From the NCBI RefSeq assembly GCF_044324785.1, contig NZ_CP172127.1: a stretch of 64,000 nt of DNA. One strand, given 5' to 3'. The stretch comes from Escherichia coli. GTDB taxonomy: Bacteria > Pseudomonadota > Gammaproteobacteria > Enterobacterales > Enterobacteriaceae. A model generated the notes under the pieces. That model was not told the origin of the DNA. It saw only the letters and a program-made list of their open reading frames with translations, and ran no database searches. The position numbers and the translations under genes are program-made. Every line of letters begins with the position of its first letter. Within the stretch, counting starts at the first letter, position 1. Positions 4,052 to 27,931 of the stretch are shown piece by piece.

Positions 4052-4802
4052 GTAACCCCCGGAGAACGCGAAAGAGTTGCTGAACGATACTATTGAGACG
4101 TGGATCGTCGGCTTCGCGCAACCAGGTGTTAACCCGATTTCCTGTAGGATCGTCGCTTAAATGGCGCAGGAGCCGATCGCAAATTTCTCGCCCCTGACGA
4201 TAGCCCGCCAGCCGCCTCGCTTCTCGCTCAATGGCGATACGCTGTGATGGCGGGATCTGCGGCCATAGCGGTTGCATGGTCACCCCGGTGGGATCGCGAT
4301 AATCCACAGCGTGAATCTTCTGTTGCAGCAAACCGAGCGCCACGGCGAAACCGTGAATGGTGGCGGCCGGTGTTGGCGGGCAGCCGGGGATCCAAACATC
4401 AATGGGGACAATGGTGTCGCTGCCGCCCCAGACGCTGTAAAGATCGTGGAAAATACCGCCGCCGACACCGCACGCGCCGTAGGAAATACAGATTTTATGA
4501 TCGGGGGCAGACTCATATGCCCGAAGTGCAGGCATACGCATCGCCCGGGTGACTGCGCCAGTAAATAACAAAATATCGGCGTGACGCGGTGATGAAACAA
4601 CCTTAATGCCAAAACGTTCTGCGTCGAATACGGGTGTGATGGCGGCAAAAATTTCGATTTCGCAGGCGTTGCAGCCGCCGCAATCGACGCGATAAACGTA
4701 GGCCGAGCGACGGATATCCTGTAACAAATGCTGCTTCATCTTTTGCGTTTGCTCGTCCAGCGTGATGGGCTGGCTGACATATTGCGTAAGCACTGGACTC
4801 AT
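4044..4802 (-). CDS. hyfI: Hydrogenase-4 small subunit HyfI (NuoB/HycG-like)
   Basis: 252 aa; Cys-rich N-terminal cluster-binding region ([10 protein letters not shown]...GACGVGGG...GCPP) typical of NuoB-type subunits. Confidence 0.93.
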
Positions 4803-22791: not shown

Positions 22792-23919
22792 TCAGGCGAC
22801 GAGCTGTTCCATGATACGTTGATACATACGGGCAAGTAGCTGCAGGTCGGCAGCGTTCACACATTCATTAATTTTATGAATAGTGGCATTGACCGGCCCG
22901 AGTTCCACCACCTGCGCCCCCATGCGGGCAATAAAGCGCCCGTCGGACGTTCCGCCTGTGGTCAGTAGCTGCGGTTTAATTTCATTATAGTGCTCAACCG
23001 CGTTAACGACCGCATCCACCAGTTTACCGCGCGCGGTCAAAAATGGCTGCCCGGAAAGCCACCAATCCACCGTATAGCGCAGTTGATGTTTTTCAAGCAG
23101 GGCAAGTACCTGCGCTTTGATCATCTCATCAGTTAGTTCGGTGCTGAAGCGGAAGTTAAACTGCACAAACAGTTCACCCGGAATAACGTTGTTACTGCCC
23201 GTTCCCGCCTGAATATTGGCAATCTGCATACTGGTCGCCGGGAAGAATTCATTGCCCTGATCCCACTCAATAGCCACTAATTCATTAAGGAAAGGTGCTG
23301 CGCGATGTACCGGATTGTCAGCCAGATGTGGGTAGGCAACATGCCCCTGCACGCCATGAATGGTAAGGTTGCATGTTAACGATCCGCGACGACCATTTTT
23401 CACCACGTCACCTACCACTTCGATACTCGACGGTTCGCCGACCAGGCAGTAATCGAGACGCTCATTACGCGCCATTAACGCTTCGACGACTTTTACCGTA
23501 CCGTTGTGGGCACTGGCTTCTTCATCAGAGGTGATCAGAAATGCCAGTCGTCCCGTATGGTTGGGATGTTGTGCGACAAAGCGTTCTGCCGCTACCACCA
23601 TCGCTGCCAGCGAGCCTTTCATATCTGCCGCACCGCGCCCGAATAACATACCGTCACGAATGGTCGGTTCAAACGGCGGATTGATCCAACGATCTGCGTC
23701 GCCAGGCGGCACCACGTCGGTATGCCCGGCAAAGGCCAACGTTTCACCCTGCCCACGCCATGCCCAAAAATTCTGCGTATCGGCAAAATCCATGCGTTCA
23801 ACGGTAAAACCGATCGCCTGCAAACGTTCAATCAACAAAGCCTGGCATCCTGCGTCATCAGGACTCAGGGAAGGGCGGCGAATAAGCTGTTGTGTCAGCT
23901 CAATAACCGGGCACGACAT
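22792..23919 (-). CDS. dapE: Succinyl-diaminopimelate desuccinylase DapE (M20 peptidase)
   Basis: 375 aa matching E. coli DapE. Confidence 0.96.
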
Positions 23920-23922
23920 AGA

Positions 23923-24297
<375 letters not shown>

Positions 24298-24605
24298 TTA
24301 TGAGAATAAATACTCATTTAAGGGTGAAAACATTTTGCCTGCAAATGATTATCAGGAAATATAACATTATCGAAGTATTCAAATTAACAACTATTAAATA
24401 ATATTAAACATTTTTAACGTAAACATTAAGAATATTCATCTTGTTATCTGTCTGTATTTTAACCAGAATTAAATCAGTATTAGATACCGTATGAATATCT
24501 CGAAATGGTGCTGTGTATCACATACAAATCATCACCGCAGGACCATAGTATTTACATAAGGTTTGTCCCCCGGAGGTAGTCATCGCAGCAATCGAGTAAA
24601 TTAGC

Positions 24606-24634
24606 TTCACCACGGTATATTGTTTCCGTAGAAT
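24606..24634 (+). promoter_or_regulatory. Candidate sigma-70 promoter for ypfM (-35 TTCACC, 17 bp spacer, -10 TAGAAT)
   Basis: Hexamers at 24606-24611 and 24629-24634; predicted TSS about 20 nt before the ypfM ATG. Confidence 0.45.
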
Positions 24635-24659
24635 ACCCATAATTATAAGAGAGGTTGTT

Positions 24660-24719
24660 ATGATTGAACGTGAACTGGGGAACTGGAAAGACTTTATCGA
24701 AGTTATGCTTCGTAAGTAA
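24660..24719 (+). CDS. ypfM: Small protein YpfM (19 aa, MIERELGNWKDFIEVMLRK)
   Basis: ATG preceded by AGAGAGG; 19 codons then TAA; absent from the ORF track (below its size cutoff); matches the known E. coli small protein. Confidence 0.75.
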   Translation: MIERELGNWKDFIEVMLRK

Positions 24720-24743
24720 TTCCTGAGACAAAGTACAAACAGC

Positions 24744-24766
24744 AAGAACCTGCTGAGCAGGTTCTT
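24744..24766 (+). other. 10-bp-stem hairpin downstream of ypfM (aagaacctgc-tga-gcaggttctt), no U-tract
   Basis: Perfect inverted repeat; precedes the terminator at 24784-24812. Confidence 0.4.
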
Positions 24767-24783
24767 AATCGGAAAGTTGAAAA

Positions 24784-24812
24784 GGGCGACACATTGGCAT
24801 GTCGCCTTTTTT
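24784..24812. terminator. Bidirectional intrinsic terminator between convergent ypfM and acrD
   Basis: Hairpin ggcgaca-N8-tgtcgcc flanked by AAAA on the 5' side and TTTTTT (24807-24812) on the 3' side. Confidence 0.75.
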
Positions 24813-24817
24813 ATTGC

Positions 24818-27800
24818 TTATTCCGGGCGCGGCTTCAGCGGGAAGCGGCGGCGCACCAGCACAAAGAACAGCGGCACGAAGTAAATAGCCAGAATAGTGG
24901 CCGAAATCATCCCGCCCATTACGCCAGTACCCACCGCATGCTGACCACCGGAACCGGCACCCGTGCTGGTTGCCATTGGCAATACGCCGAAGATAAATGC
25001 CAGCGAGGTCATCAGAATCGGGCGTAAACGCTGACGGCAGGCGTGGAGCGTCGCTTCAAACAGGTCGTGGCCTTTTTGGTTCATCTCGTTAGCAAACTCG
25101 ACGATCAGGATGGCGTTTTTCGCCGATAAACCAATGACCGTTAACAGGCCCACCTGGAAGTAAACGTCGTTTTCCAGCCCGCGCATCCAGGTTGCCAGCA
25201 GCGCGCCGATAACCCCCAGCGGCACGACCAGCATTACCGAGAACGGCACCGACCAGCTTTCATACAGCGCCGCCAGACACAGGAATACCACCAGCAAGGA
25301 AATGGCGTACAGCGCCGGAGCCTGCGCGCCGGAAAGCCGCTCCTGATACGACATCGCCGTCCACTCCAGACCAAAGCCGTTTGGCAGCTGCTTCACTAAC
25401 GATTCCATAATATCCATCGCCGTACCGGTACTGACCCCCGGTGCGGCTTCCCCTACAATCTCTACCGCAGAATAACCGTTATAGCGTTCCAGACGCGGCG
25501 AGCCTGTCTCCCAGCGTGAGGTCGCGAAAGCAGAGAAGGGCACCATGCCGCCATCTTTATTTCGGACATACCAGAGATTGATGTCATCTGGCAGCATGCG
25601 ATATGGCGCAGCTGCCTGCACATAGACTTTCTTCACGCGACCGCGATCCATAAAGTCATTCACATAGCTCGAACCCCAGGCGGTTTGCAGTGTGTCGTTA
25701 ATATCGTCGATAGCAACGCCCAGCGCCTGAGCTTTACGCTGGTCGATATCAATCTGCAACTGCGGACTGTCGTCGAGGCCGTTATGGCGCACACGGGTTA
25801 GCTCCGGGTTTTCCGCCGCCAGCGCCAGCAACTGGTTACGTGCTGCCATCAGCGCATCGTGACCTGCCCCGGCGTGGTCCTGCAACTCCATATCAAAACC
25901 CGCAGAACTGCCAAGACCGCTAATTGCTGGCGGGCTGCTGGCGATAACGCGAGCTTCTTTAATCTTGTTAAACGCCTTCGTTGCACGCTCGATAATGGCA
26001 AACGAGGTGCCGGTCTTACTGTCGCGTTCGCTCCAGTCTTTCAGGCGGATAAACATTCGCGCCACGTTTTGCCCGTTACCCCCAGGGCCAGAACCAACAG
26101 TGGCAAACACCGACATGATGTTGTCTTTTTCATGGGTGAAGTAGTATTTCTCGATTTGCTCAACGACTTTCAGGGTCTGTTGTTGGGTTGAACCGCTGGG
26201 CAACTGTACCGAGGTAGTAAACATGCCCCGGTCTTCCAGTGGCAAGAACGACGTCGGCAAACGCAGGAACAGGAACACCATGCCGCCAAGCAGCAGGACA
26301 TAAATCACAATCCAGCGCAGGCTACGGTGGAGAATTTTCGCCACCCCTTTTTCGTAGCGTTCGGCGTTGCGGTTAAACATCTGGTTAAACCAGGCAAAAA
26401 AGCCTTTTTGCCCGTGATGCTCACCTTTTTTCAGTGGCTTAAGTAGCGTGGCACACAGAGCCGGAGTGAGGATCATCGCTACCAGTACTGACAGCACCAT
26501 CGCCGCAACAATGGTAATAGAGAACTGGCGATAGATGGCACCGGTGGTGCCGCCGAAGAAGGCCATTGGCACAAATACCGCCGAAAGCACCATCGCAATC
26601 CCGACCAGTGCCCCCTGGATCTGCCCCATCGATTTACGTGTGGCTTCGCGAGGAGTGAGTCCTTCCTCACTCATAATACGTTCGACGTTTTCCACCACCA
26701 CGATGGCGTCATCCACCAGCAGACCGATCGCCAGCACCATCGCGAACATGGTTAAGGTGTTGACGCTGTAACCGAAGGCATAAAGTACGGAGAAGGTTCC
26801 CATCAACACCACCGGCACGGCGATAGTGGGTATCAGCGTGGCGCGGAAGTTTTGCAGGAACAGATACATAACGAGGAAAACCAGAGCGATAGCTTCCAGC
26901 AGCGTTTTCACCACGTCTTCAATGGAGGCTTTAACAAACGAGGTGGTTTCATACGCCACCTTGTATTCCAGTCCATGCGGGAAATACTGCGCCAGCTCGT
27001 CAAGACGATTGAGCACCAGCTCCGCTGTCGCCATTTCGTTCGCGCCGGAGGCCAGTTTTACCCCCAACCCGGAGGCTGGCTTACCATTGAAGCGGCTAAG
27101 ATAATCGTATTTCTCCGCCCCCATTTCGACGGTGGCGACATCGCCCAGCCTTACCTCTGAGCCGTCCTGATTCACCCGCAAGGTGATATCGCGGAACTGT
27201 TCTGGTGTTTGCAGCAGTGACTGGGCGTTAATGGTGGCGTTGAGCGCCTGCTTATCGACGGAAGGCGTACCACCAAGTTGCCCAACCGCAATCTGCGCGT
27301 TCTGTGACTCAATGGCATCAGTGACATCTTTAGCCGTCATCTGGAAACTGTTGAGTTTCGCCGGGTCCAGCCAGATACGCATGGAATATTGCGAACCATA
27401 GGCATCGATATCCCCAACGCCATTCACGCGGCTTAACGGATCCTGAATATTACTGGCAACGTAATCGGCAATATCCTGTTTATCCATCGAACCATCGGTA
27501 GAGACGAAGGCAATGGTCAGAATGTTGGTATCGCCGGTTTTACGCACCGTCACGCCCTGATTTTGCACTGCCTGCGGTAACTTTCGCATGGCAGATTGCA
27601 GCTGGTTTTGTACTTGCTGCACGGCTTCGTCCGGATCGGTGCCTGCTTTAAAACTTAAAGTGACAGATGCCTGACCGGTGCCGCTGCTCTGAGATGACAT
27701 ATACATCAGATTATCGAGACCGGTCATATTTTGCTCGATAACCTGGGTCACGGTGTTTTCCAGCGTCTGGGCCGATGCGCCGGGATAGTTAGCGGTCACT

Positions 27801-27931
27801 CGCACATTCGGTGGCGCGAGATCGGGGTATTGTTCAACGGGCAATGAGAAAATCGCCAGGGTCCCTGTCAGACACAACAGGATTGCCAGCACCCAGGCAA
27901 AAATGGGGCGATCAATAAAGAAATTCGCCAT
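24818..27931 (-). CDS. acrD: RND multidrug efflux pump AcrD (aminoglycoside efflux)
   Basis: 1037 aa, 12-TM RND transporter matching E. coli AcrD. Confidence 0.96.

Follow-up and report, generated by a model that had tools for sequence, protein, structure and literature searches.

AcrZ, a 49-amino-acid protein with a transmembrane helix, is a partner of the RND pump AcrB whose binding has been demonstrated and which is encoded away from acrB, and the small proteins MgtS and AzuC are membrane-associated. Hfq-binding RNA modules, for their part, carry a terminal hairpin with a U-tract and an A/U-rich stretch before it. Among the systems closest to the locus described here is STnc250 of Salmonella, the name under which Sittka et al. 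2008 listed the ortholog of ypfM (PMC2515195). That report gives a growth-phase-dependent Northern band of about 220 nt in Salmonella and a 4-fold enrichment upon Hfq co-immunoprecipitation (24 reads versus 6 in the control), the Hfq reads spanning 94 nt that begin at codon 14 and extend to the terminator, and it concludes that STnc250 is a "small mRNA gene", namely E. coli ypfM, credited to Wassarman et al. 2001 (PMC2515195). In RNA-seq of S. Typhi, STnc250 was the most abundant among the mapped Hfq-bound RNAs (PMC2704369). The protein has also been seen: top-down mass spectrometry covered 100% of the intact YpfM peptide and showed an N-terminal formyl-Met, the peptide was detected by DIA and PRM as well, and it is among the few small proteins that LC-MS/MS commonly picks up, with PRM being reproducible for YpfM only in low-Mn2+ minimal medium in this 2025 proteomics study (PMC12529367). 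No function has been assigned to YpfM in the searchable literature, in which one paper writes of "ypfM of unknown function", and no partner protein, phenotype or solved structure was found there or in a PDB search. Finally, collision-based bidirectional termination has been described at convergent E. coli gene pairs (bioRxiv 10.1101/2022.10.23.513370); ypfM and acrD are likewise convergent.

Within a window of 64,000 nucleotides of E. coli DNA, which is the whole stretch analysed here, we found that a short open reading frame between yffB and acrD is the annotated gene ypfM, which encodes a single conserved protein of 19 amino acids and forms a stand-alone transcription unit. The translation of 24660-24719 corresponds to RefSeq WP_001386977.1, "protein YpfM", and is identical in K-12 and four other strains, so the gene name given in the original prediction was correct. 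The gene is divergent from yffB-dapE and convergent with acrD, a position that is conserved in nearly all ypfM-bearing loci. Over 551 nt centred on the locus, identity is 99.6% to strain 042 and 99.1% to K-12; in 5,411 of 5,426 complete E. coli genomes at least 80% of this 551-nt query length was matched, and the annotation under the match reads "ypfM: protein YpfM" in about 5,410 of the 5,426. K-12 has the same peptide, promoter hexamers and terminator as the window, and its gene likewise lies between yffB and acrD, whereas the two transcripts differ at two bases: T at 24751 in the window completes a perfect hairpin 1 where K-12 has a C.A mismatch, and with G at 24784 the window carries an A4G tract instead of the A5 of K-12. 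The features discussed below are as follows.

22792-23919, minus strand: dapE.
23923-24279, minus strand: yffB.
24544-24549, plus strand: upstream block CATAGT, conserved in about 15 of 23 genera.
24606-24611, plus strand: -35 hexamer TTCACC, found by the scan and kept in position across genera.
24629-24634, plus strand: -10 hexamer TAGAAT, found by the scan, with a 17-nt spacer from the -35.
24647-24654, plus strand: Shine-Dalgarno region AAGAGAGG, spaced 5 nt from the ATG.
24660-24719, plus strand: ypfM open reading frame, 19 codons and TAA, encoding MIERELGNWKDFIEVMLRK and annotated in RefSeq.
24720-24725, plus strand: post-stop motif TTCCTG, consensus T-Y-C-[ACT]-G.
24744-24766, plus strand: hairpin 1, AAGAACCTGC-TGA-GCAGGTTCTT, with arms at 24744-24753 and 24757-24766.
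24778-24813: intrinsic terminator, shared with convergent acrD and composed of an A-tract, GGGCGACA, an 8-nt loop, TGTCGCC and T6.
24818-27931, minus strand: acrD (RND efflux permease), the convergent neighbour, with its stop codon at 24818-24820.

The gene, the peptide and the Salmonella transcript have all been reported before, and the locus is therefore not novel. Peptide detection and a Northern blot had been named as checks in the original prediction, and both are already in print: mass spectrometry answers the former (PMC12529367), and the transcript of about 220 nt in Salmonella answers the latter (PMC2515195). Because these two results were previously published, our finding is a rediscovery. 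What we add here are the conservation of the gene, covariation in its terminator, its synteny with acrD, the allele frequency of hairpin 1 and a motif that follows the stop codon.

Conservation was assessed in a comparative set of 80 loci, each from a different species and located by means of yffB, that spans Escherichia to Yersinia, Serratia, Dickeya, Pantoea and Erwinia. We found a YpfM-like open reading frame of 19-20 codons in 67 of these 80 Enterobacterales species loci, with M1, E5, W9, K10, F12, I13, M16 and L17 invariant across the homologues. Among 50 distinct nucleotide sequences, variable sites fall at codon positions 1, 2 and 3 in 9, 4 and 16 of 18 cases, respectively, and the pooled pN/pS is 0.16. 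These data indicate that ypfM is a protein-coding gene under purifying selection across Enterobacterales. The predicted 19-amino-acid open reading frame is present at 24660-24719 with a coding signature, and its peptide is made in E. coli. The 20-residue Pantoea homologs score 49.0 and 39.2 bits against the NCBIfam equivalog NF033843 (small_YpfM), for which the cutoff is 33 bits, and the Yersinia homolog scores 32.1 bits against the same cutoff. No Pfam family was found for YpfM, and the PDB search yielded no relative, its best hit (E-value 1.6) being a chance 7-mer. The original statement that the function of the peptide is unknown likewise holds in the searchable literature.

YpfM has a GRAVY of -0.43 with four positive and four negative charges, and a hydrophilic peptide of this kind would not form a membrane-spanning helix. 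Its hydrophobic moment, when it is modelled as an alpha-helix, is 0.55, which is reached by 2.8% of shuffled sequences. In this model I2, L6, W9, I13 and M16 fall on one face, and the positions that vary (4, 8 and 15) are on the flank and the opposite face. The moments of the Pantoea and Dickeya homologs are not above those of shuffles at the 5% level. The amphipathic-helix model is therefore moderately supported. The best-supported mechanism, to which we give about even chances, follows the example of other bacterial small proteins: YpfM would be a single amphipathic helix that docks on a larger partner protein by way of an invariant face made up of I2, L6, W9, I13 and M16, together with F12 and L17, leaving positions 4, 8 and 15 to the solvent.

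Upstream of the gene, the scan identified a candidate sigma-70 promoter with 9 of 12 consensus matches and 17-nt spacing. On its own, the promoter scan performs at chance level (1 site versus 2.5 ± 1.7 in shuffles). The case for the promoter instead comes from comparative and published evidence. The -35 (cTTCAC), the -10 (TAGAAT or TATAAT) and AAGAGAGG hold their positions in 23 genera, throughout which T1, A2 and T6 of the -10 hexamer are invariant, and an RpoD genomic-SELEX table lists the identical hexamer pair for ypfM with an H-NS flag on the spacer (PMC3946193). The dedicated promoter that had been predicted, TTCACC-17-TAGAAT, is thus supported by conservation and by the SELEX table. The good Shine-Dalgarno holds up as well: AAGAGAGG lies 5 nt upstream of the ATG, and this region is nearly invariant in 68 loci. 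From this promoter, transcription is predicted to start near 24641. Approximately 110 nt upstream of the ypfM ATG, the CATAGT block may serve as the -10 of another, more distal promoter or as a site for a regulator, and its membership in the ypfM unit is uncertain. A start at CATAGT would fit the Salmonella band of about 220 nt better than the approximately 150 nt expected from the proximal promoter; the block has no recognisable -35 partner and was not flagged by the scan. In Salmonella, a MarA box has been described in the ypfM<>yffB region; this box is absent both from the intergenic region of the window and from S. diarizonae, so MarA regulation in Salmonella is not transferred to E. coli.

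At the other end of the unit, the terminator has arms at 24780-24791 and 24800-24811 with its T6 at 24807-12, and it ends 6 nt from the acrD stop codon. On the plus strand, a GC-rich stem of 12-14 bp (-18.4 kcal/mol) is followed by U6, as in an intrinsic terminator, and the region holds 3 terminator-like sites versus 0.4 ± 0.6 in shuffles. Across 44 sequences from different genera, the stem is paired in 96.4% of cells and compensatory changes occur in 7 of its 12 pairs, a level reached by 0 of 500 shuffles; conservation of the A-tract that precedes the stem is 90% or more. The minus-strand version of the element folds at -13.8 kcal/mol with U4 in the window and at -18.0 kcal/mol with U5 in K-12. 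For an acrD transcript, no other hairpin comes between the stop codon and this one. The conserved symmetry of A-tract, stem and T-tract suggests that termination probably occurs from both directions, and we infer, as is reasonable given this symmetry, the conservation and the position, that the shared terminator is bidirectional. The original claim of a bidirectional terminator is partly supported: an intrinsic terminator abuts acrD, but the scan made no terminator call on the minus strand at the shared site.

The arrangement with acrD is itself widely kept. In all ypfM-bearing loci except those of two Dickeya and one Yersinia, the AcrD C-terminus lies 6-125 nt past the terminator, and where ypfM is missing, acrD is also missing from beside yffB in 10 of 11 informative loci. 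In Erwinia endophytica, a different open reading frame of 65 amino acids fills the gap. Physical linkage and common descent confound this co-occurrence of ypfM and acrD, and a functional link between YpfM and AcrD, for which synteny is the basis, would have a low probability.

Between the stop codon and the terminator lie 30-88 nt of 3'UTR that are unalignable between genera. In the window, this interval contains hairpin 1, a perfect 10-bp stem with a 3-nt loop (-14.3 kcal/mol) that matches the 10-bp-stem hairpin predicted to follow the open reading frame. The perfect stem is the minority allele in E. coli, at roughly 9%: the 41-nt hairpin 1 region is matched exactly in 468 of 5,425 E. coli records and with a one-base difference in 4,937. 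Each of the eight other alleles that we read has C at 24751, which introduces a C.A mismatch into the plus-strand stem and weakens it from -14.3 to -9.6 kcal/mol, while the minus-strand hairpin stays at -14.5 kcal/mol by means of a G.U pair. In one strain, the apex of hairpin 1 is interrupted by an IS10-like element. We considered whether hairpin 1 is specific to Escherichia, and this is overturned by homologues of the form AAGARC...GYTCTT in Buttiauxella, Cedecea and Pseudocitrobacter, in addition to E. albertii. Two Buttiauxella species differ by a single clean compensatory change, A-T to G-C. Enterobacter and Leclercia retain only the left-arm motif GCAAGAGCA, and in other genera the hairpin is missing or replaced, Salmonella and Citrobacter carrying a different short one. 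From this distribution, hairpin 1 appears to predate Escherichia, though it is not universal.

As a whole, the predicted ypfM RNA (24641-24818, 178 nt) folds better than 200 of 200 shuffles (z = -3.6), and same-interval 3'UTRs have a mean folding z-score of -1.0, with values below -2 in 14 of 52 sequences. The Rfam family RF01409, "STnc250 Hfq binding RNA", covers this region. Its first 21 nt encode EVMLRK-stop, which means that the family really comprises the distal part of the ypfM open reading frame and the 3'UTR. The window scores 34.9 bits against this family, under the gathering score of 42, compared to 112.9 bits for Salmonella, 81-92 for Citrobacter and 43.1 for E. albertii, and the low score is attributable to a 37-nt Escherichia insert that holds hairpin 1. 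STnc250 and the window thus occupy orthologous positions and have the terminator stem GGCGAC/GUCGCC in common, whereas the Salmonella and Citrobacter RNAs possess a short AUCCC/GGGAU hairpin in place of the Escherichia insert; Hfq binding has been demonstrated for Salmonella STnc250 only. A stem that Rfam models within the open reading frame (CGAAG/CUUCG) is 93.5% paired with zero compensatory change, and shuffles do equally well.

Immediately after the stop codon, a T-Y-C-[ACT]-G motif occurs within 12 nt in 68% of 66 distinct 3'UTRs; its frequency is 3% in shuffled sequences and 5-6% in other parts of the UTR. Codons 7-10 (24678-24689) contain its complement, the invariant GGGAA/CUGGAA, and the duplex that it would form with the open reading frame has a mean energy of -6.8 kcal/mol. 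Shuffles give -4.1 ± 0.27 kcal/mol, and the two UTR windows that follow give -3.6 and -3.0. Partition functions of full transcripts give 5.4 expected pairs versus 2.9 and are higher in 37 of 44 species, a count uncorrected for shared ancestry. RNAalifold found no fixed-register consensus structure over the distal open reading frame because the pairing register varies between genera, and true covariation of this pairing is unscorable because its coding side is invariant. At synonymous sites, Gly7 is encoded by GGG in 43 of 47 sequences and Leu17 by CTT in 37 of 50, although these codons make up 16% of Gly and 10% of Leu codons in the long genes of the window; the conservation of such rare codons indicates that the RNA is constrained somewhat beyond the protein. 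Together, the pairing and synonymous-site evidence is suggestive of an mRNA stem-loop, closing off the distal ypfM open reading frame, that is under selection, and the post-stop motif is better explained by intramolecular pairing with codons 7-10 than by a regulatory seed. Of the two hairpins originally predicted, hairpin 1 stands, but the count is ambiguous since a further stem-loop, the one that closes the distal open reading frame, is predicted besides it.

These RNA-level features raise the question of whether the transcript does more than encode YpfM. A dual function, in which the ypfM transcript or a 3' fragment corresponding to the STnc250 region would also be an Hfq-binding, base-pairing regulator, draws on the 4-fold Hfq co-immunoprecipitation in Salmonella (PMC2515195), the title of the Rfam entry, an RNA that ends in a hairpin and U6 with an A/U-rich stretch before it, the conserved post-stop motif, some constrained synonymous sites, and the precedent of Spot 42/SpfP (PMC8916003). 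However, the accessible part of the Salmonella report sets that 4-fold value beside 21-27-fold for several bona fide small RNAs, and its authors themselves reclassified STnc250 as a small mRNA (PMC2515195). Moreover, a conserved seed longer than 5 nt is absent from a 3'UTR that does not align between genera, the pairing with codons 7-10 accounts better for the post-stop motif, and neither target nor interactome evidence was found in the searchable literature, including the searchable part of the Adams 2021 supplementary tables, which has no ypfM entry. We therefore consider such a regulator improbable, and we are equally doubtful of its fuller version, in which the pairing of codons 7-10 with the post-stop motif would be joined to an Hfq-associated 3' module, perhaps linked to acrD. 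The original suggestion that the transcript may also act as an RNA thus retains the Salmonella Hfq enrichment weakly in its favour, and the 3'UTR on which it leaned is unconserved apart from the terminator and the 5-nt post-stop motif. The more extreme view, that the open reading frame is fortuitous and the locus purely non-coding, has a historical root, given that the locus was first found in small-RNA screens and entered Rfam as an sRNA. We regard it as already refuted for practical purposes, because the peptide has been directly detected by mass spectrometry (PMC12529367), and it would leave unaccounted for the codon-position pattern, the pN/pS of 0.16 over 50 distinct sequences, the invariant start codon, the conserved Shine-Dalgarno and a length held at 19-20 codons.

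Two further readings place the weight on acrD. Hairpin 1 could work mainly on the minus strand, as a back-up terminator or insulator against acrD read-through antisense to ypfM. The scan calls it terminator-like on that strand only, with the tail CUGUUUGU, and in the majority allele, which has C at 24751 and makes up about 91%, the hairpin is weaker on the plus strand but kept on the minus strand; these two observations point to a possible back-up stop for acrD read-through, as does the short minus-strand U-tract of the main terminator. Also in its favour, E. coli and Buttiauxella have an identical flank AAACAGC, which reads GCUGUUU on the minus strand. The asymmetry of G.U and C.A pairs, as an indicator of the strand under selection, gives mixed signals: the G.U pairs that B. 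noackiae, Cedecea and Pseudocitrobacter have on the plus strand are C.A mismatches on the minus strand. Given in addition that the U-rich tail is weak and that such a hairpin is missing from many genera in which acrD is arranged alike, we judge a mainly minus-strand role unlikely. It is also conceivable that the whole unit acts mainly in cis on acrD, either by convergent transcription or through approximately 40 nt of complementary terminator RNA carried by both 3' ends, with the peptide being secondary. Such a role would be compatible with collision-based termination known at convergent E. coli pairs (bioRxiv 10.1101/2022.10.23.513370), with a shared-terminator arrangement in all but three ypfM-bearing loci and with the 10 of 11 informative ypfM-less loci that also have no acrD next to yffB, though the confounding of this co-occurrence by linkage and common ancestry weakens the last two points. 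A purely cis role would not explain the strong purifying selection on the peptide, nor why Dickeya and one Yersinia species retain ypfM without acrD, and we consider it very improbable.

The reading that very probably describes the locus as a whole is a monocistronic small-protein gene, ypfM, with its own promoter, a structured 3'UTR and a shared terminator. According to this model, the sigma-70 promoter TTCACC-17-TAGAAT would drive an mRNA of roughly 180 nt, made up of a leader of about 19 nt, the 19-codon open reading frame and a structured 3'UTR of about 100 nt. The 3'UTR would end at an intrinsic terminator that stands back-to-back with the end of acrD and probably stops transcription in both directions, and the pairing of the open reading frame with the post-stop motif, hairpin 1 and the terminator would serve mainly to stabilise and terminate this very short mRNA.

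YpfM is among the shortest validated E. coli proteins and among those more readily detected by mass spectrometry, and it is conserved over much of Enterobacterales, so that the remaining interest lies in the role of a 19-amino-acid protein and in selection on the structure of its mRNA. The conserved pairing between the open reading frame and the start of the 3'UTR, together with the constrained synonymous sites, suggests that the ypfM mRNA structure may itself be selected. For later study, the invariant hydrophobic face of the modelled helix could be probed with point mutants, the back-to-back placement with acrD, which is nearly universal, provides a handle, and the natural T/C polymorphism at 24751 alters the strength of hairpin 1 on one strand only.

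Compared to described systems, ypfM resembles yneM/mgtS (STnc570) and azuC in that a tiny open reading frame with its own promoter and terminator is carried by a short mRNA that looks like a small RNA. With these proteins from small-RNA screens and with Spot 42/SpfP it also has an association with Hfq in common (PMC2515195, PMC8916003). By contrast, MgtS and AzuC are found at the membrane, whereas YpfM is hydrophilic. AcrZ and YpfM are both small proteins genetically associated with an RND pump, ypfM being almost always beside acrD; however, AcrZ is a transmembrane protein with demonstrated binding, whereas YpfM has no hydrophobic segment and synteny alone connects it to AcrD. Lastly, the bidirectional terminators of Ju et al. 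2019, as cited in a later study, are single convergent sites at which both transcripts end; the site between ypfM and acrD, with its conserved A-tract/stem/T-tract symmetry, is probably comparable, but this class is described there as unlike intrinsic terminators, whereas the plus-strand terminator of ypfM looks like a classical intrinsic one (bioRxiv 10.1101/2022.10.23.513370).

The window carries the minority allele at two sites beyond the ypfM ORF, 24751 and 24784. At the former, a T yields a perfect hairpin 1 (the 10-bp-stem hairpin of the ypfM 3' UTR, 24744-24766), and an exact match to the 41-nt hairpin region is found in only ~9% of E. coli records. Because the perfect stem also occurs in E. 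albertii and in a divergent Escherichia lineage, the common C allele at 24751 appears to be the derived state. At 24784, within the downstream terminator (24780-24812), the window has G, whereas A occupies this site in four of five further alleles read, and this G leaves the minus-strand U-tract with four residues instead of five.

Within the ORF itself, conservation across genera extends to two rare synonymous codons. Gly7 (24678-24680) is encoded by GGG in 43 of 47 sequences, compared to 16% usage in the long genes of the window, and Leu17 (24708-24710) by CTT in 37 of 50, compared to 10% usage in those genes; the codons neighbouring both are freely variable. This conservation may be tied to pairing of the ORF, at codons 7-10, with the motif that immediately follows the stop codon (24720-24725).

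Two blocks conserved in many genera lie upstream of the ypfM -35 element (24606-24611), and the spacer that separates ypfM from yffB also holds a divergent yffB promoter, whose hexamers were placed by us:

24544-24549, conserved block CATAGT
24581-24603, conserved block AATCNCAGCAATCGNNTAAA
24495-24490, minus strand, -35 of the yffB promoter
24473-24468, minus strand, -10 of the yffB promoter

CATAGT could represent the -10 of a candidate distal ypfM promoter, and the ~220-nt Salmonella transcript (PMC2515195) is a better fit with a start near 24556 than with the proximal promoter, whose predicted start is near 24641. No good -35 for CATAGT is present, and the promoter scan gives no call at this block. 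The yffB promoter, TTCATA-16-TTTAAT, is assigned to the yffB-ypfM spacer in an RpoD SELEX table that also flags this spacer for H-NS (PMC3946193), and our placement of it implies a yffB leader of ~180 nt. GC content falls to 19-25% in a stretch of the same intergenic region (24300-24480).

In other species, the yffB neighbourhood can be occupied differently. Erwinia endophytica has a different ORF of ~65 aa (MNYLKASSVHTVEETQ...; 2150-2360 of its locus, minus strand) in place of ypfM in the yffB-acrD gap. Rfam matches at gathering level place a naRNA4 element near yffB in E. albertii (4266-4346 of its locus) and, in Dickeya undicola, where acrD is missing, a fluoride riboswitch and a cspA thermoregulator (835-896 and 1362-1781).

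Our search of E. coli genomes returned ~5,440 matching places, including one on a plasmid record; in some cases a single genome holds two. Between 13 and 15 genomes have no match over at least 80% of the query, and in the one such genome examined, that of E. coli c1-17 (NZ_AP040898.1), the shortfall is due to an IS insertion. Here, an ISVsa5 element of the IS4 family (1620-2960 of the locus) interrupts hairpin 1 precisely at its apex, at the equivalent of 24750-24758. The ypfM ORF is intact, and the element lies between it and both the hairpin's right arm and the terminator. The element, which is IS10-like, is flanked by a 9-bp target duplication, CGCTGAGCA, that matches the Tn10/IS10 hotspot consensus, NGCTNAGCN.
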